A stretch of 10,454 bases of DNA from Candidatus Thorarchaeota archaeon SMTZ1-45 (lineage in GTDB: Archaea > Asgardarchaeota > Thorarchaeia > Thorarchaeales > Thorarchaeaceae): the NCBI GenBank assembly GCA_001563335.1, contig LRSL01000111.1, positions 1-10,454 of the forward strand, written 5' to 3'. Shown piece after piece: positions 1 to 9,147 of the stretch; position 1 is the stretch's first letter, and each line of letters starts with the position of its first letter. The notes beneath the pieces were generated by a model. The model was not told the DNA's origin and ran no database searches. It saw nothing but the letters and a program-made list of their open reading frames with translations. Position numbers and translations under genes: made by a program.

Positions 1-1059
1 GTTATTGTTAGACCCATTGTTCTCATGTGGACTGACGCAACTGGCAAGGTCAGACAGGTCACTACACCAGAAACTGCTATCCTTGTTGAGAAAGGTGCAG
101 CTGTGGCTGCTCCTGCAGCAGTAGCCCCTGTACCTATAGAACCCACAGAAACATACGAACCCCCAGTGTTGACCGAAGAATCTCCATTCGGACCTGTAGT
201 TGGTACTGGATTTGGAACAAGTGAAGTACGTGACAAAGCATCTGAGATCTTGCATACAACAATGGCTCAAGATAGCGCTGAGTCACTAAAAGCTGCAGAA
301 GAACTTCTCGATCAGCTGTTTGGCGCTGACGAAAGCAGCGCTGCAATGGCAGAGATTGATGATATCGAAGCTCTTGCTGCTGAGCCTACTCCTGAAGAAA
401 CCGTAACAGCCGCCGTGGTGTCTGATGTTGAGAGCCAACTCATTTCAGAAATTCGGACCAGAAGACCAAAACCCCCACAACCAGGAACTGCTGCAGACTC
501 TTATCAGTTCTTATTCAAGACGATGGTCATCGGAGAAGGTGCTGTTGGAAAGACAACTCTCGTCAATCGTTATGTGACTGGCGTCTTCGAGCGTGATTAT
601 AAGACCACAATTGGTAGTCAGTTCGCTGTTAAACTCACACACATCTCACCACCAGAGAGAGAGTACTCGACTGGTATCAAGCTACAAGCTTGGGATGTAG
701 CTGGACAGGCACGATTCAAGGCAGTGCGGAAGATGTATTATTCTGGCGCTGCGGGTATCATTCTAGTTTTCGACGTTACTCGACGCCGTTCCTTCACTGA
801 ACTATCCAAGTGGGTCCAAGAGGCTGACGAGTCAATAGGGGTGCGTGTACCAATGGTCTGTGTGGGCAACAAGACTGACCTACCCGACCGTGCTGTACCC
901 TCTGATGAGGCGAAACGATGGGCTGAGGATCAAGGATTCTTGTATATGGAGTCATCAGCCAAGACCGGCGAGGGTGTAGCGGACATGTTCACTGTGCTTG
1001 CTGAGGTCATGTGGCGAGAGGCTCGCAAGCACCAGGAAGACAAGAAGTCTAGAATGTGA
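1..1059 (+). CDS. Multidomain Rab-like small GTPase (5'-partial): beta-strand-rich N-terminal segment, acidic/Ala-Pro linker, C-terminal Rab-like G domain (about 502-1059)
   Basis: Frame 1 is open from base 1 (VIVRPIVL precedes the ATG at 25), so the true start is probably upstream of the window. The G motifs are complete: G1 GEGAVGKT, G2 YKTTIGSQF, G3 WDVAGQARF, Rab-like MYYSGAAGIILVFDVT, G4 GNKTD, G5 ESSAK. There are no C-terminal cysteines. TGA at 1057-1059. Confidence 0.93.
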   Translation, partial: VIVRPIVLMWTDATGKVRQVTTPETAILVEKGAAVAAPAAVAPVPIEPTETYEPPVLTEESPFGPVVGTGFGTSEVRDKASEILHTTMAQDSAESLKAAEELLDQLFGADESSAAMAEIDDIEALAAEPTPEETVTAAVVSDVESQLISEIRTRRPKPPQPGTAADSYQFLFKTMVIGEGAVGKTTLVNRYVTGVFERDYKTTIGSQFAVKLTHISPPEREYSTGIKLQAWDVAGQARFKAVRKMYYSGAAGIILVFDVTRRRSFTELSKWVQEADESIGVRVPMVCVGNKTDLPDRAVPSDEAKRWAEDQGFLYMESSAKTGEGVADMFTVLAEVMWREARKHQEDKKSRM

Positions 1060-3644: not shown

Positions 3645-4718
3645 ATGCCTGAAGAACGAGAAAGCGAGCAAAAGACCAAGAGGATAACATCGCTCCTCTC
3701 CATTTCCCACGATAAAGACGTTGATGGACTAAATTCAGCAGCTATTGTATGGAGATATGCCAAAACAAAAGGTCTCGACTTCAAGGCTATTCTTACTGAT
3801 TATGGCTCCTTTGAGCAAGTGTTCTCTTTTATTGCGAAACAAAGAGATACTCTAATCATTATTACTGATCTAGGAATGGATGATACAATAATCGATGTTG
3901 TTGAAACTGGACTAACTAGAGCAATTGCTCAAGACTGTCGAGTTGTTTGGCTAGATCATCATCATTGGTCTGACCGAGCAATAAAGATGATTCTCTCGCT
4001 TGGAAATAATCCAATTCTGAAAGTTAATCATGAATTTTGTGCAGCGGAAATCACACATAAGGTACTCATGCCACGCGATGAGATTTCCACTGAATTGGCA
4101 AAGATCGCGCACGATACAGACTTCAACCTTCGAGAGATTGATGCTGCCACTGCGCTCACTGATGCAGTCAATGTTATCCGTTTTGGAGCGATTGACAAGA
4201 AGGAAGATGTGACTGATGCCCTGTACCCTATTCTTACAAAACTAGCTGAGGATGGGATGGATGGACTTTGGGACAAAGTGTCTCGCAAATTCAAGGACTT
4301 GCTCCTTGATCAACGTGTTGACAATTATAGAAAAGAGAAAATAAAGAAGATGAAGAAGGCTCTAGCTAGACATAGTGATCAGATTATTCATGGAAAACTT
4401 GTTCGTGTTGTGGAGATTCCAAGTGGTCTCACATCCACTGACATGGGCACTTTTGCATCAGATCCTGAGATTCTAACCTCCATCGATCCTGAGATGAAAG
4501 TTGCAGATCTCTTACTCTCACTTAGCCAGGGTGGGATGCTTGGTTTCAGAAGAGGCTCTGATGGGGTGCTATGCAATGCTGCTGCGAAATTATTCAATGG
4601 TGGTGGACATCCATATGCTGCAGGTGGTGAATATGGTCTCTACGAAGACTTCCACGCGGTCTGTGATGATATCTTTGTGACACTATCAAAGAACAAGGAT
4701 TGGATTTCCGATTCTTAG
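3645..4718 (+). CDS. DHH-family phosphoesterase with DHHA1 domain (nanoRNase/RecJ-like superfamily)
   Basis: Motif I SHDKDVDG, motif II ITDLG, motif III WLDHH, a motif IV-like AHDTD, and C-terminal GGGHPYAAGG (DHHA1). Its stop overlaps the convergent gene's stop at 4715-4718. Confidence 0.9.
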   Translation: MPEERESEQKTKRITSLLSISHDKDVDGLNSAAIVWRYAKTKGLDFKAILTDYGSFEQVFSFIAKQRDTLIIITDLGMDDTIIDVVETGLTRAIAQDCRVVWLDHHHWSDRAIKMILSLGNNPILKVNHEFCAAEITHKVLMPRDEISTELAKIAHDTDFNLREIDAATALTDAVNVIRFGAIDKKEDVTDALYPILTKLAEDGMDGLWDKVSRKFKDLLLDQRVDNYRKEKIKKMKKALARHSDQIIHGKLVRVVEIPSGLTSTDMGTFASDPEILTSIDPEMKVADLLLSLSQGGMLGFRRGSDGVLCNAAAKLFNGGGHPYAAGGEYGLYEDFHAVCDDIFVTLSKNKDWISDS

Positions 4719-5686
4719 GATGATTTCTTCTGCAACATTTTCTTCAATATATCAAGAACATCAATACCTGATTCCCATAGCTCGTCAAAGGTCTTTATTG
4801 CATCATTAATGAGCCCAGGGTTGTCACTACGATGGATTAAGGCTGCAACATCTGATTCTTTTGCATGTGTGAGATAGAGGAGCATCTTGTCTTCATTGAG
4901 ACAAATTATTCTATATGTTTTGATAGGCTCAGGTGTGAATCTTAATTGAATATTACCCGTTTTCGTTGCTTGTTCAAATACCTCCACCATCGGAGTCAGA
5001 TGACCCGCCATCAGATTCAAGTTAAGTTTCTCGGACTCAACAGGAGTTAAGAGTCCTTGGACTTTTACCCCTCTAAAACCAGATTGTATTAGCCTTAACT
5101 CAGTCACCCCCCCAGGGCCAAGACCCTCTGCAAGAGTGCTTACATGACCAAGAACTCTGATAAGGTCCCCCGCTTCTGCTTTATCTGCAAATTCTCGAAT
5201 AATATTACTTCTAACATTTTCGATTCCTTCAATCACTAGAGATTTTTCAATCGACTGAGCACCGACTAATTGTTTGTGCAGCATTAGTGCGAGTTCTTGA
5301 CTCTTGACTGATTTTAATCGATTGAGCTTTGTTGTCACTTCCTGTTTCTTTGTCAGATGATCAGCCAGTTTGACTTTTCGTTTTGTTTCGAGGGCTTTTG
5401 CGACACCTGTTTCTGTTATTGAATAAGTTCTGGGAGTATGAATAGTATCAATAGTGATGAACCCTTGTTCTTCCAAGTCGTTTAATCTTCGATAGATGTA
5501 AGCTTTGGTGTACCTTTTGTTGGCTATTTCTTCTAGACTACGAACTATTTCATCGTAATTCACAGATCTACTAGTACATCCAGCAGCTAAGAGAACAGCT
5601 CGAAATACTTGCATTTCGCTTGAAGTCGTATCTATTCCAAGTTTTTCGAGATTACTCTGGAACTTCTTACTGGACACAGTCGTCAC
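4715..5686 (-). CDS. TrmB-like protein, paralogue C (wHTH, coiled coil, PLD-like C-terminal domain)
   Basis: LEKLGID N-terminus; recognition helix and wing YIYRRLNDLEEQGFITID..PRTYS; helical linker; VIEGIENV, RGVKVQGLL, KTYRIICLNED, NPGLINDAIKTFDELW. Its GTG start overlaps the upstream TGA (GTGA at 5683-5686). Confidence 0.78.
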   Translation of the reverse strand: MTTVSSKKFQSNLEKLGIDTTSSEMQVFRAVLLAAGCTSRSVNYDEIVRSLEEIANKRYTKAYIYRRLNDLEEQGFITIDTIHTPRTYSITETGVAKALETKRKVKLADHLTKKQEVTTKLNRLKSVKSQELALMLHKQLVGAQSIEKSLVIEGIENVRSNIIREFADKAEAGDLIRVLGHVSTLAEGLGPGGVTELRLIQSGFRGVKVQGLLTPVESEKLNLNLMAGHLTPMVEVFEQATKTGNIQLRFTPEPIKTYRIICLNEDKMLLYLTHAKESDVAALIHRSDNPGLINDAIKTFDELWESGIDVLDILKKMLQKKSS

Positions 5687-6600
5687 CCTTCAAAAACTTC
5701 TAAATCAGATCCCAATTCATAGTCCTGATCGAAACTGTCTATGGCATTGTCAACTAATTCGGGATTCGCGGATCTCGGTAACCATGTTGCAGACAAGGGA
5801 TTCTCGGAAACCACAAGAACTATCCCTTCGGTATTTCGAGCCACAAATTGATAAGTTGCATCCTTTCGTGGGAATACCCTATAACCAACCTTTTGGAATT
5901 CTTTTCGCAAGTCCATAATTAGTTGCATAGCTTCTTTTCGGAGTTGCCTCTCACTTCTATTATGATCCAATGCCCTAAATTCTACTCCCTTTTTGAGAAG
6001 ATTTTCCGCGTTCAGCAATCTTCGTGTATTCAAGTAGTTTCCTTGGGACAACCACTCAAGTGTGATTCTTATCACATCCCCCTTTTTGAGACCTTTGTAT
6101 ACCTTGTCATCAAGCAACTTCAGCATGTTATCCATACCCTGCGCAAAGGCTGGTTTTTCGATCTTGCTCTTACCAGCTACATAATCTATCAAACGAGCCG
6201 CCAAAGTTACTGAGTTTATCTCTGAAAGAACCTCAATCTCAGAGTCAATCTCTTTCAGTTCATTTTGCATATCTACAATATTTTGACTAACAATTTTCTC
6301 TAATGCTCTCTCCATAGTCGCAATACTGGAATTGTAACCATGTTTGCGACCACTACTATCAATCTTTACAAATCCCTCTTTTTGAAGCCAAGAGAGACTT
6401 CTGTAAATTAGTGGATCCTTGCCTTTTCGTGATCCCTCATCTATTTCTAGTTGTTCCCGTAATGTTTCGAACTCAATATAGTCTGCAGGCTCTTCTTGAG
6501 ATTTCAGAAGAGCTCCAAGTATGACCATGTTTTTTTTGGTTGGATCTAGACCCAGCATCTCAAGCAATTCTTCATGTAATACTTCAGTTTCCACCCTCAC
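5683..6600 (-). CDS. TrmB-like protein, paralogue B (wHTH, coiled coil, PLD-like C-terminal domain)
   Basis: LEMLGLD, LIYRSLSWLQKEGFVKID, coiled coil MQNELKEIDSEIEVL, FAQGMDNM, KGVEFRAL, ATYQFVARNTE, NPELVDNAIDSFDQDY. The start is GTG at 6600 or 6594. Confidence 0.78.
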   Translation of the reverse strand: MRVETEVLHEELLEMLGLDPTKKNMVILGALLKSQEEPADYIEFETLREQLEIDEGSRKGKDPLIYRSLSWLQKEGFVKIDSSGRKHGYNSSIATMERALEKIVSQNIVDMQNELKEIDSEIEVLSEINSVTLAARLIDYVAGKSKIEKPAFAQGMDNMLKLLDDKVYKGLKKGDVIRITLEWLSQGNYLNTRRLLNAENLLKKGVEFRALDHNRSERQLRKEAMQLIMDLRKEFQKVGYRVFPRKDATYQFVARNTEGIVLVVSENPLSATWLPRSANPELVDNAIDSFDQDYELGSDLEVFEG

Positions 6601-6617
6601 TACCCCAATCAGTCTGA

Positions 6618-7649
6618 TTATTCTACTCCTTTTCTACTTGTAATCCTTCTAATTAGTTCTCCGGGTTCTGATGTAAAAGCCTGAATATCTTTGGGAGTCA
6701 TCTCCAAGAATGATTTTGATCGCTTCCATTCTCTGTCAAAAGTTTTCACCGCGTTATCAATAAGATCTGGGTTGAAGTCTCTAGTTATCCAAGTAGCGGT
6801 AACCGGGTCCTCCGCAATTATCAACGCCATGTTGTCTTTGTTGATGCTCACTTGATTGTAGGTTTTTGGTCCTTGATATATGCGAATATCAAACTTCACC
6901 CCATTCTTTCTCAGCTCTCCAAGATGTTGCATTACTTTCATTACCTCTTCCATGTTGAAAGAAACACCTGGAGCCAACTCTTCAATTTTGAAGACTTCAG
7001 TTGATATCATATACCTTACATCTACACCTCTCTGAGCAGTTTCGACGAACTTCATCGTTCTCTCTACAGCCCCCTCTGCAAAAGGAGCTAACCACAAAGC
7101 GGTTGCTCGAATCACGTCACCTCTCATTGCAACATCAAGCATATTGTATCGTAGAACTCTGTGAAGCTCATCAACACCTCGAACTATCCTTGAGCTGATT
7201 TTTTGTTGGGTCCCAGTAATTTTCTTGACAAACTCTTGTGCAAGAAGACCACACTCAAGACCTCTAACTTCTGCAAGAACATTATCAATCTCGTTTCTTT
7301 GGCCCTCGAGCTCGCGAATCCGTTCGCTTTTCAGTTGTTCTAGACCCGCCATCACTGTATTCACATCAGCAATGTACCTCTTGCGGTGTGCTGATGGGTT
7401 CTCCACTCGTACAAGCTGAGCTTCAACTAAGGACTTAAGCACTCTGTGGACCCATGTCTTTGATAGCTTTGTTTCTGTGTCCTCCACTGACAACTGATCA
7501 TAGATCTCCGCAAATGAAAGAGGAATAGGTGGATCGTTCTGAAGTTTGAGAATTACGCTTAGTAGATTCATTGAACGGGATTCCTGTCTGTCGCCAATCA
7601 TGAATCCGCATAGTTCAAGGGCTTTTGAAATACCATCATCTTGCGACAT
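6618..7649 (-). CDS. TrmB-like protein, paralogue A (wHTH, coiled coil, PLD-like C-terminal domain)
   Basis: LELCGF, WVHRVLKSLVEAQLVRVE..RKRY, coiled coil LEQLKSERIRELEGQRNEIDNVL, IVRGVDEL, RGVDVRYMIS, KTYNQVSINKD, NPDLIDNAVKTFDREW. ATG 7649 is preferred because GAGGG lies upstream. ATG 7670 is the alternative. Confidence 0.78.
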   Translation of the reverse strand: MSQDDGISKALELCGFMIGDRQESRSMNLLSVILKLQNDPPIPLSFAEIYDQLSVEDTETKLSKTWVHRVLKSLVEAQLVRVENPSAHRKRYIADVNTVMAGLEQLKSERIRELEGQRNEIDNVLAEVRGLECGLLAQEFVKKITGTQQKISSRIVRGVDELHRVLRYNMLDVAMRGDVIRATALWLAPFAEGAVERTMKFVETAQRGVDVRYMISTEVFKIEELAPGVSFNMEEVMKVMQHLGELRKNGVKFDIRIYQGPKTYNQVSINKDNMALIIAEDPVTATWITRDFNPDLIDNAVKTFDREWKRSKSFLEMTPKDIQAFTSEPGELIRRITSRKGVE

Positions 7650-7682
7650 TAAGTGTCCCTCTTTACTCATTTATGAGCAGCA

Positions 7683-7691
7683 CTAAAAAGT
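7683..7691 (-). promoter_or_regulatory. Candidate TATA-like element for the TrmB-like operon
   Basis: The minus strand reads ACTTTTTAG about 35-40 bp upstream of ATG 7649, in a ~30% GC gap. Confidence 0.3.
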
Positions 7692-7731
7692 TCCATGTTT
7701 TACTAACTTTATGACTGTATACAACCACACG

Positions 7732-7741
7732 ATATATATAT
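7732..7741 (+). promoter_or_regulatory. Candidate archaeal TATA box for the structured RNA
   Basis: ATATATATAT, centred about 25 bp upstream of G7761, where the GC-rich hairpin block begins. This is the expected archaeal TATA-to-TSS spacing. Confidence 0.5.
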
Positions 7742-7760
7742 GCACTTAGTTATATGATTC

Positions 7761-7900
7761 GTCAGCAGCTGTCCGCTGCTAACTCCGGGTGGATGCTTCA
7801 CGGTAATCCACAACGGGCATGGTACAGGGCATGCCGGTGGAACCCATCGGCCACGAAGCAGGGTGGCGCAGGGGGTGTCCCCTGCTTCTTCTCCGTGATT
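7761..7900 (+). ncRNA. Putative novel structured non-coding RNA (~140-155 nt)
   Basis: 63% GC over 7761-7890 (82/130 by hand count), against ~30% in the preceding 90 bp. Five consecutive helices: 7764-69/7775-80; 7789-94/7806-11 (plus 7785-87/7814-16); 7817-21/7830-34; 7833-40/7844-51; 7855-63/7880-88 with inner 7865-69/7875-79. Flanked by a TATA-like box and a T7 tract. No family recognised. Confidence 0.6.
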
Positions 7901-7916
7901 CTCTCTCACTTTTTTT
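7899..7916 (+). terminator. Pyrimidine/oligo-T archaeal terminator candidate
   Basis: TTCTCTCTCACTTTTTTT immediately after the last helix, with T7 at 7910-7916. It overlaps the stop codon of the convergent reductase gene. Confidence 0.5.
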
Positions 7917-9147
7917 AAAGGCCGCTCACAGCGATGGCTCGAAGATATCCTGCCCCAATCTTGGCTACCATCGGTAAGAAGTCTGTCATAAGCGTCATCA
8001 ATGTGCCAACACTTGCATGACCCTGAATCAGTTCGTTCAGAGTCTTGGCATCGAGTTGATTTAGCACGATTTCTGCAGCAGCTACTGGGTCGTTGAACAT
8101 ACTGTATTTGGAAACCGCCCACATACCTTTGCCCGTGTTCATGATGTTAGAGGCTAATTTGGTCTTTCTATACTCTCTCTCGTATTTTCCAACACTCTTC
8201 TCTGAGAAATCTTCTTCATCCACCATTCGTTTTGCATGTTTTGCAAGAACCTGCCCTGCATGAAAACAAGTCGTGACTCCCCCACCAACAATTGATGATA
8301 CCTGTCCTGCTGAGTTTCCACAGAGTGCAACTCCAGCATCAGTGAATTTGGGAATGATACCTGCGCAGGGGACAACACCACCATTCACTGCTGAAATCTT
8401 TGCATTTTGAGTTTCAGGATGAGTCTTCATGTACTTCCGAAGTACATCCTGCATTGGAGGGAGTGAATGCCAGTTCGCTTTTGATGATGGTACACGTCCT
8501 ATTCCAAGATTAATCTCAGTTTCAGATCTCGGATACAACCAGAGATAACCGAGGCCAACATCTTTTCCTACAAAGAAATATGCTACATCAGGGTCTATTC
8601 CTTTACAGTTCTTAAGTTTGAATCGATACCCATAGCTAAGTAGCCACTTTGGATGCTTGAAACCCGCGGTTTCTGAAACACGACTGAATGAACCATCAGC
8701 ACCCACAGTCAGCCTACCATGTTCCTTCCCACTCTGATTGAAATTCACACCAACTACAGAACCCTTCTCTTTTATGACCGAATTCACTCGTGATCTATAT
8801 CTGAACTCTGCATCATCTGAAAGTGCGCGGTCTCGCATGAGTTCCTGGCATTTGTCTTCATCGAAGAGATACGAATTACCAAGCAGGCTCCGATCAACGA
8901 CAATATTGGCTCCAGTGTCCAAACTCTCTCCCACAATTGAATTGTACTTGTTCCCGATATAGTCCGAGTCTGGTCTGACTCTCAAGAATTTCAATGCTTT
9001 ATCAGTGACCAACTCTCCCATGAGTGAGTGTGTGACACTCTCGCGTTTCTCTAGGACTAGTGTCTTTAGACCATATTTTGCAGTCCACTCCGCAGTCATA
9101 AGTCCTGCAGGTCCAGTCCCAGCGATAATCACGTCATATGTCATCAT
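7915..9147 (-). CDS. Geranylgeranyl reductase / DGGGPL reductase-family FAD-dependent oxidoreductase (atypical)
   Basis: YDVIIAGTGPAG dinucleotide-binding motif, VGADG, GYLWLYP (YxWxFP-like), INLGIG, GGVVP, and CGNSAGQV...GGGV (GDAAG-like). 410 aa, with GGAG upstream of ATG ATG. Confidence 0.85.
   Translation of the reverse strand: MMTYDVIIAGTGPAGLMTAEWTAKYGLKTLVLEKRESVTHSLMGELVTDKALKFLRVRPDSDYIGNKYNSIVGESLDTGANIVVDRSLLGNSYLFDEDKCQELMRDRALSDDAEFRYRSRVNSVIKEKGSVVGVNFNQSGKEHGRLTVGADGSFSRVSETAGFKHPKWLLSYGYRFKLKNCKGIDPDVAYFFVGKDVGLGYLWLYPRSETEINLGIGRVPSSKANWHSLPPMQDVLRKYMKTHPETQNAKISAVNGGVVPCAGIIPKFTDAGVALCGNSAGQVSSIVGGGVTTCFHAGQVLAKHAKRMVDEEDFSEKSVGKYEREYRKTKLASNIMNTGKGMWAVSKYSMFNDPVAAAEIVLNQLDAKTLNELIQGHASVGTLMTLMTDFLPMVAKIGAGYLRAIAVSGL

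Follow-up and report, generated by a model that had tools for sequence, protein, structure and literature searches.

An intergenic region of Candidatus Thorarchaeota archaeon SMTZ1-45 carries a conserved, structured element that is probably a real, plus-strand, trans-acting non-coding RNA (ncRNA) gene, located at about positions 7762–7915 (+). Positions are those of the window, that is, the whole 10 454 nt stretch of DNA analysed (contig LRSL01000111.1, assembly GCA_001563335.1). The element occupies a gap of 244 nt between two minus-strand open reading frames (ORFs), 6618–7670, encoding a TrmB-like regulator, and 7915–9147, encoding a protein of the geranylgeranyl-reductase family. That it is a genuine plus-strand RNA gene is very likely and, given that it is, action in trans is likely. 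It represents a new, lineage-restricted ncRNA family, found in one family of Thorarchaeota. The first-pass annotation of the sequence had proposed a new small RNA gene in an Asgard archaeon, and this is supported by covariation among homologues, by the single-copy state of the element and by the lack of any Rfam match.

Structure and covariation

The GC-rich core of the element consists of 125 nt of consecutive hairpins (7764–7888, +). In bins of 100 nt, the G+C fraction rises from 0.33 at 7650–7749 to 0.56 at 7750–7849 and 0.63 at 7800–7899, in agreement with the sharply bounded GC island described earlier. Upstream on the plus strand is an A/T run resembling a TATA box, ATATATATAT (7732–7741), separated from the core by a spacer of about 20 nt that varies freely among homologues. 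Hairpin 1 (7764–7780) has the arms AGCAGC (7764–7769) and GCTGCT (7775–7780) around the loop TGTCC, and is followed by an unpaired, conserved linker, AACT (7781–7784), which together with the next CCG reads AACUCCG. Hairpin 2 (7785–7816, +) is irregular, with a base of CCG/CGG, a middle helix of GTGGAT/ATCCAC and the loop TCAC; its arms, CCG.GTGGAT/ATCCAC..CGG, pair 7785–7794 with 7806–7816, and there are three extra inner pairs, GCT/GGT, at the top. A conserved 16 nt segment, GCATGGTACAGGGCAT (7817–7832), unpaired in the model, leads to hairpin 3 (7833–7851), in which GCCGGTGG (7833–7840) and CCATCGGC (7844–7851) enclose AAC. After a CAC spacer, hairpin 4 (7855–7888) comprises a 9 bp stem, GAAGCAGGG/CCCTGCTTC (7855–7863 with 7880–7888), a bulged T7864, a 5 bp inner helix, GGCGC/GTGTC (7865–7869 with 7875–7879), and the G-rich loop AGGGG. 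The 3′ end is formed by an unpaired, pyrimidine-rich (CU-rich) tail of 21 nt, TTCTCCGTGATTCTCTCTCAC (7889–7909), and a T7 tract (7910–7916), a likely archaeal terminator, which overlaps the TAA stop codon (7915–7917) of the convergent gene. The helices AGCAGC/GCTGCT, CCG.GTGGAT/ATCCAC..CGG, GCCGGTGG/CCATCGGC and GAAGCAGGG/CCCTGCTTC enclosing GGCGC/GTGTC, all recorded in the first-pass annotation, are thus present, and they are kept among the homologues.

Homologues for the first alignment were collected by BLASTN. A plain MAFFT alignment misaligned hairpins 2 and 3, and RNAalifold therefore recovered hairpin 1 and part of hairpin 4 from it and nothing more. A covariance model was built from eight sequences and a hand-drawn structure, all 22 sequences were realigned to it and the model was rebuilt twice. 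In the resulting alignment 92.8 % of cells are paired and 17 of the 40 modelled pairs change on both sides, compared with 5.5±1.6 in shuffled controls (none of 500 reached 17) and 5–7 in controls in which the structure was slid. The larger alignment of 41 sequences (39 distinct, from several genera) has 90.7 % of cells paired and both-side changes in 34 of 40 pairs, compared with 15.9±2.3 for the shuffles of the distinct sequences (none of 500 reached 34) and 12–18 for the slid controls. Covariation among homologues is therefore above both kinds of control in each alignment.

The four hairpins differ in what is conserved. Among the 39 distinct sequences, both-side changes occur in every one of the six hairpin 1 pairs, and 90.2 % of the cells of this hairpin are paired. 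In hairpin 2, both-side changes affect two of three pairs in the base helix and eight of nine in the upper helix, and the base CCG/CGG is replaced by CCAA/UUGG and CCGA/UUGG in two relatives. Hairpin 3, in which all eight pairs change on both sides, is a variable, dispensable insert that is missing in locus L020 and in most members of genus g3. Hairpin 4 shows both-side changes in ten of its 14 pairs, with 93.8 % of cells paired, and its stem and G-run are nearly invariant in sequence across members; one of its G·U pairs (alignment columns 166 with 181) is GU in 17 sequences, GC in six and AU in five. A further helix proposed earlier, GCATG/CATGC, is weakly supported. Its cells are 90.2 % paired within the genus, but just one of its five pairs changes on both sides, a figure equalled by 233 of 500 shuffles. 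It overlaps the hairpin 3 helix by two bases, so that full formation of both is impossible, and it is absent from relatives that lack hairpin 3.

Two single-stranded stretches are also conserved. Across the 41 members, positions 7782, 7784 and 7785–7787 of the linker AACUCCG are at least 85 % identical, as are positions 7817–7821, 7823, 7825 and 7828 of the unpaired segment GCATGGTACAGGGCAT. The latter has the 14 nt consensus GCAUGKUACAGGGC, of which the ACAG-containing box is lost in genus g3. To judge from its conservation, the segment 7817–7832 is the best candidate for a recognition surface.

A family-wide pseudoknot between the G-loop and the CU/C-rich tail is not supported. Own tails compared with shuffled tails gave a mean z of −0.2 (26 sequences picked from the 41), and the duplex energy of the G-loop was −17.6 kcal/mol with own tails and −17.7 kcal/mol with the tails of other genera. 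Genus g3 alone stands out (−23.3 against −16.4). In genera g3 and g7, tails (L070, L072, L071 and L078) contain a C-run complementary to the G-loop and the bases 3′ of it, the loop and tail complements being GGGGGGCG/CGCCCCC, GGGGGGCU/GGCCCCCC and GGGGGUG/CACCCC. This complementarity may represent a lineage-specific alternative pairing. Another candidate contact of the G-loop is with CUCC (7784–7787). The member in genus g9 (L093:2750–2880, −) has an enlarged hairpin 4 interior with two G-runs, and its core motifs are legible although the family model scores just 19 bits.

Strand, promoter and terminator

The composition of the helices favours the plus strand. The 1401 pair cells include 160 G·U wobbles, in either orientation, and 27 A·C combinations, likewise in either orientation, and 90.7 % of cells pair on the plus strand, compared with 81.2 % when read on the minus strand; the alignment, being derived from a plus-strand model, leans to that strand, but the ratio is large nonetheless. 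Several conserved G·U pairs exchange with A·U or G·C. In the window, the three G·U pairs previously noted in the last two hairpins were located (G7837·T7847, G7866·T7878 and G7868·T7876), and hairpin 2 has two more. A wobble favouring the minus strand had also been reported in hairpin 1. This was not found, all six pairs there being Watson–Crick.

The TATA-like box expected ahead of the element is present as the octamer ATATATAT (7732–7739), 32 nt 5′ of the first modelled base. In 34 of 41 members, an octamer with at least seven of eight A/T begins 27–35 nt ahead of the first base of the model. In archaeal transcription the TATA box usually lies about 27 nt upstream of the start; applied to this box, the usual spacing predicts a start at about 7760–7766 and an RNA of about 150 nt. 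Oligo-T terminates archaeal transcription. The T7 tract does exist (7910–7916, +), but it is 21 nt past the last helix and not directly after it, as had been stated. A run of at least five Ts within 25 nt past hairpin 4 occurs in 22 of 41 members, mostly of the genus to which the window belongs. In these 22 members the pyrimidine fraction of the tail is 0.42–1.00, and at least 0.71 in 19 of them; CU-rich tails occur in other genera too.

An ORF overlapping the element (7754–7918, +) is not conserved in frame, its ATG is not kept and indels among the homologues are not multiples of three. With a TATA-like box and an oligo-T end, and being apparently non-coding and conserved, the element resembles a stand-alone archaeal small RNA (sRNA) gene, and from these signals we infer independent transcription from the plus strand.

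Copy number and distribution

The search of the element's own genome (3.54 Mb, 87.7 % complete) returned the self match and otherwise four matches of 14–21 nt (E values 0.56–6.8). With a single copy here and one match in each of the 43 genomes with a hit, the element is not a miniature inverted-repeat transposable element or other dispersed repeat, a possibility raised with the first description. Of the 27 other genomes of the genus, 21 each yielded a single clear BLASTN homologue, with identities of 96–73 %; no homologue was detected outside the genus. With the second covariance model, 43 of the family's 86 genomes had a match, always a single one, distributed as 24 of 27 in genus g1, 11 of 17 in g3, three of five in g5, three of seven in g4 and one of seven in g7, with no matches in eleven other genera of the family. 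Matches to the third model were confined to the family (14 of 26 genomes, in addition to the own genome), with none in 124 genomes representing 26 further families of the phylum. The RNA is restricted to one Thorarchaeota family.

Five genera without matches were inspected at the same gene neighbourhood, where gene order is kept in four. With filters off, weak matches were obtained at the expected syntenic position in genera g9 (19 bits, E value 0.006) and g6 (15.9 bits, E value 0.03), genus g36 was doubtful (11 bits, E value 0.35), and nothing was found at this neighbourhood in g33 or g32.

Comparison with known RNA families

The earlier suggestion that the RNA is new is borne out here: with Rfam 15 there were no matches at the gathering score in the window, and cmscan of 7600–8000 gave none at an E value of 10 or below. 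The distant members L070 and L093 gave only 8–23 bits to unrelated families, far below threshold. The genome encodes its RNase P RNA on another contig (C11, 168.5 bits), as it does its signal recognition particle (SRP) RNA (C24, 85.5 bits, below the 96.5-bit cut-off). ARAGORN found no tRNA or tmRNA genes in the window. A box C/D sRNA was likewise rejected: the C box (RUGAUGA) occurs in none of 41 members, a D-like CUGA in ten and both together in none. As regards H/ACA RNAs, the sole conserved ACA (7824–7826) is 8–10 nt past hairpin 2 and is lost in genus g3, and no tandem G·A motif was seen by eye, no dedicated H/ACA search having been made. A riboswitch or cis-acting leader is not supported, as the next gene (7915–9147) is on the opposite strand and the structure favours the plus strand. 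The U6 small nuclear RNA (snRNA) model, RF00026, run over the whole genome, gave ten sub-threshold matches (best 20.5 bits), none at the locus (C111:7764–7916); the segment corresponding to the U6 box reads ACAGGGC, not ACAGAGA, and is not kept in genus g3. A viral or mobile origin was also rejected. The hairpin 4 pattern occurs in 38 stretches of IMG/VR, of which the family model matched 18 at an E value of 1 or below (best 31.2 bits). In the best three of the 18, the score comes from the pre-selected hairpin, and both the G-loop and hairpin 2 are lacking; the IMG/VR matches are not counted as family members.

Independence from neighbouring genes

The RNA is flanked, in 36 of 42 loci, by the 3′ end of the reductase-family gene on one side and the 5′ end of the TrmB-like gene on the other. 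Among the six exceptions, three (L025, L071 and L076) are contigs cut short and the others are informative. Genome G001 (97 % complete; locus L026) retains the RNA, at 72.5 bits, with a DHH-family ORF directly upstream, and a search of that whole genome with the TrmB-like protein of the window as query returned no homologue; it looks, from the gene arrangement, as if the TrmB-like cluster was deleted or never inserted. A DHH-family ORF is also present in the window (3645–4718), beyond the three TrmB-like genes. In G021 the RNA is beside a different ORF and the TrmB-like cluster is on another contig; in G009 an ORF resembling a membrane histidine kinase takes the place of the reductase; and in G024 an ORF of 249 aa is inserted between the RNA and the reductase. 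The RNA needs neither neighbour in cis and looks autonomous. Its retention without either of them makes untranslated region (UTR) and pure-antisense explanations less favoured.

Alternative explanations

Several observations weigh against an autonomous, trans-acting, plus-strand RNA. The alignments in which covariation was counted were fitted to the model by cmsearch and are biased to its structure and strand, and the sequences are related, so that the shuffle counts overstate significance. When the single sequence is folded, the plus strand has a z of −2.37 (4 of 200 shuffles as good), and the minus strand folds if anything better (z −3.66, none of 200 as good). Folding energy alone is weak evidence and uninformative on strand; it is conservation together with covariation that puts the element beyond chance. 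Synteny kept in 36 of 42 loci would also fit a cis-acting element, T-runs are rare in genus g3, and the longest exact match or complement of the RNA elsewhere in the genome is 14 nt (E value 1.5), which is chance level. X20, from an oligo-dT library and the sole RNA run among 21 listed, contained 0.04 of the sampled words. It gave one contig of 166 nt (depth 2.8) on 7702–7831, which includes the promoter region and continues as a variant without hairpin 3, and contigs from DNA runs break at the same conservation borders.

One alternative is a cis-antisense RNA, whose sole mode of action would be perfect complementarity to minus-strand transcripts that read through from the reductase gene to the TrmB-like operon. 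In 36 of 42 loci the RNA has these two minus-strand genes on either side, which suits such a role, and as no run of at least five Ts was seen on the minus strand from the reductase stop codon to about 7688, read-through is conceivable. However, the RNA persists at loci with no adjacent reductase gene and where TrmB-like genes were not found, and covarying hairpins and invariant loops would be needless for pure antisense action, which makes this explanation improbable. Conserved synteny and the minus-strand fold (z −3.66) might instead indicate a structured part of a minus-strand mRNA, either the reductase 3′ UTR or a long operon leader ahead of the TrmB-like genes. This is very improbable given the 160 G·U against 27 A·C, the four conserved pairs that a minus-strand reading would turn into A·C mismatches, the positioning of the TATA and T-run signals for the plus strand and, again, the persistence of the RNA without either neighbour.

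An element acting as DNA, such as a cluster of protein-binding inverted repeats, or conserved sequence with no RNA function, would explain why the hairpin 4 arms are almost invariant in sequence, as in a DNA site; transcription, moreover, is deduced from sequence signals and comparison. It would not explain why G·U pairs persist and alternate with A·U and G·C, why hairpins 1 and 3 covary freely or why TATA box and T-run have the geometry of a transcription unit, and we consider it very unlikely. Lastly, the element might be a highly diverged member of a known family, whether snRNA-like, H/ACA, C/D, a fragment of SRP or RNase P RNA, or a riboswitch. Its layout recalls that of U6 snRNA, but cmscan found nothing in 7600–8000 at an E value of 10 or below, the U6 model misses the locus, RNase P and SRP RNAs are encoded elsewhere, the C box is absent from all 41 members, ARAGORN found no genes and there is no plus-strand gene downstream. 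Membership of a known family is thus extremely unlikely.

Possible function

On the preferred explanation of a trans-acting ncRNA gene, the RNA would be transcribed from its own TATA box (7732–7741), end at the T7 tract and act in trans, either as a riboregulator or within a small ribonucleoprotein as its RNA component. The balance between a base-pairing regulator and a protein-binding RNA is about even. Hairpins 1 and 3 are kept as structure only, whereas the sequence itself is conserved in AACUCCG, GCAUGKUACAGGGC, hairpin 2 and, above all, hairpin 4, including the bulged U and G-loop; this argues for sequence-specific partners, either RNA or protein. Hairpins 1 and 3 would then be scaffolding only, and a conserved partner (an mRNA, the rRNA tail or a protein) may be contacted by the invariant single strand, the G-loop or the tail. 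Purine-rich ribosome-binding sites could be targets for pairing by the 14 nt single strand or by the CU-rich tail, and the G-loop could be a Shine–Dalgarno mimic, protein binding being the other option. GGGGGUG can form six Watson–Crick pairs and one G·U with the 16S rRNA tail of one family member (...GGAUCACCUCCU), to which the loop of genus g3, GGGGGCG, is a poorer fit. No 16S or 23S rRNA gene was found in the own genome, and only one partial 16S gene among five genus relatives.

A further possibility, suggested by the conservation pattern alone and judged unlikely, is that the RNA is not a regulator but the core of a housekeeping ribonucleoprotein peculiar to Thorarchaeota. If so, the hairpin 4 stem, bulged U and G-loop, together with the invariant single strand, would be functional surfaces rather than pairing seeds. 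These could engage the ribosome, GGGGGUG being complementary to 16S CACCUCC and the CUCC-rich tail resembling the 16S tail, or, if the U6-like layout is a guide, could serve an RNA-processing activity.

Two Thorarchaeota 16S genes showed unusual features. That of G035 (L181) is 2411 nt long for a model of 1478 positions, and the 3′ end of that of G062 (L180) deviates from the expected ...GGAUCACCUCC. Insertions or introns in the rRNA genes are the probable cause.

Relationship to known systems and significance

Bacterial trans-encoded sRNAs transcribed divergently from their own transcription factor include OxyS/OxyR, GcvB/GcvA and SgrS/SgrR. The Thorarchaeota arrangement resembles these in that a small stand-alone RNA gene, with its own predicted promoter and U-tract, shares a control region with a divergent DNA-binding regulator, and in the conserved unpaired segment flanked by structure-only hairpins. 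It differs in having an archaeal host, in the TrmB-like fold of the regulator, which was not found in one RNA-bearing genome, and in a hairpin 4 whose sequence is conserved far beyond the needs of a terminator hairpin. sRNAs are known in archaea from the transcriptomes of Methanosarcina, Haloferax and Sulfolobus. Like these, the present RNA is intergenic, in the 100–200 nt range, accompanied by TATA and oligo-T signals and limited to one lineage; it has no sequence or model similarity to them, and is defined by comparative structure, not by expression data.

The resemblance to U6 snRNA (RF00026) is one of layout only: a 5′ hairpin, a single strand with ACAG, a U-tail, a TATA box with an upstream element and a long 3′ hairpin that has a bulged U and, at its base, an AGC. 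Unlike U6, the Thorarchaeota RNA is missed by the covariance model, has ACAGGGC as its box (lost in genus g3) and an optional hairpin between box and AGC, and no spliceosomal context was seen. sRNAs of the RsaE/RoxS type use C-rich loops to mask Shine–Dalgarno sequences. They share with the present RNA a homopolymer-like loop on a stable stem and a pyrimidine-rich strand that could pair with purine-rich ribosome-binding sites, but the Thorarchaeota loop is G-rich, and its GGGGGUG could pair with the 16S tail CACCUCC.

To our knowledge, research on Asgard archaea has centred on proteins, with next to nothing known about ncRNAs. The text portions returned by a full-text literature search contain no description of a structured ncRNA of this kind in Asgard archaea or Thorarchaeota. 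A family supported by covariation, with clear borders, a likely promoter and a candidate regulator adjoining it, gives the first functional studies of RNA in Thorarchaeota something concrete to work on. It is also a candidate for a new Rfam family, which would improve the annotation of Thorarchaeota genomes. Being lineage-restricted, it is a solid addition but no surprise in kind.

Neighbouring genes and the shared control region

The convergent neighbour (7915–9147, −) encodes a geranylgeranyl-reductase-family protein of the flavin adenine dinucleotide (FAD)-binding type, with matches to Pfam FAD_binding_3 and GGR_cat; the NCBIfam GG-red-SF and DGGPL reductase models match it below their cut-offs. 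The divergent neighbour (6618–7649, −) encodes a TrmB-like winged-helix regulator of 343 aa. Orthologue N-termini place its start at the ATG at 7649, compared with the ATG at 7670 chosen by the ORF finder. Its AlphaFold2 model (mean predicted local distance difference test score 83.6) has a PLD-like C-terminal domain, and the top Foldseek matches were TrmBL2 (5box_A, E value 1e-11) and TrmB (3qph_A, E value 4.8e-7), with template modelling scores of about 0.3–0.45. Winged helix–turn–helix and PLD matches in Pfam are sub-threshold only. When 23 orthologues were compared with Pfam, all matches were below cut-off, to TrmB in one (E value 0.003), to FUR in seven and to PLDc_2 in seven. The gene is the first of three tandem paralogues, the others lying 3′ of it at 5683–6600 and 4715–5686. 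The three are tightly spaced (4715–7649, −), encode 343, 305 and 323 aa, are 24–29 % identical and have weak winged-helix signals.

Between the RNA promoter and the TrmB-like gene is a conserved 29 nt block, TTACTAACTTTATGACTGTATACAACCAC (7700–7728). It is near-invariant in the genus and recognizable in other genera, and is unique in its own genome at up to three mismatches; loci L015 and L026, both still with the RNA, lack it. From its position and conservation, the block may be an operator or a core promoter. It contains the palindrome TGTATACA and is more conserved than the flanking coding DNA. By eye, the words CTAACT and TG..TACA are common to the block and the single strands of the RNA. 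In most genomes the RNA promoter would share this control region with the divergent TrmB-like operon, and the protein may act through 7700–7728. Control of RNA expression by the TrmB-like neighbour is possible but rather doubtful on our analysis, and G001 shows that the link is not obligatory.

Just 5′ of the Shine–Dalgarno sequence of the TrmB-like gene is an inverted repeat, ACTCA-N4-TGAGT in the minus-strand sense (7665–7678), which encloses the ATG at 7670. It covaries, being ACCCA/TGGGT in L009 and TTGAG/CTCAG in genus g3, and by this pattern is probably a 5′-UTR hairpin.

At the other end of the window, a gene at 25–1059 (+) encodes a 344 aa protein with a C-terminal Ras/Roc small-GTPase domain (Pfam Ras, E value 1.9e-46) and, N-terminal to it, an extension of about 160 aa that matches nothing in Pfam. 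Ras/Roc small-GTPase proteins are typical of Asgard genomes. The presence of this Ras-family GTPase agrees with the Asgard host that had been proposed from the sequence, as do the relatives of the neighbouring TrmB-like protein, which are mostly from Candidatus Thorarchaeota: 36 of the 43 loci encoding it are assigned to that group, three to Promethearchaeota and four to an uncultured archaeon.

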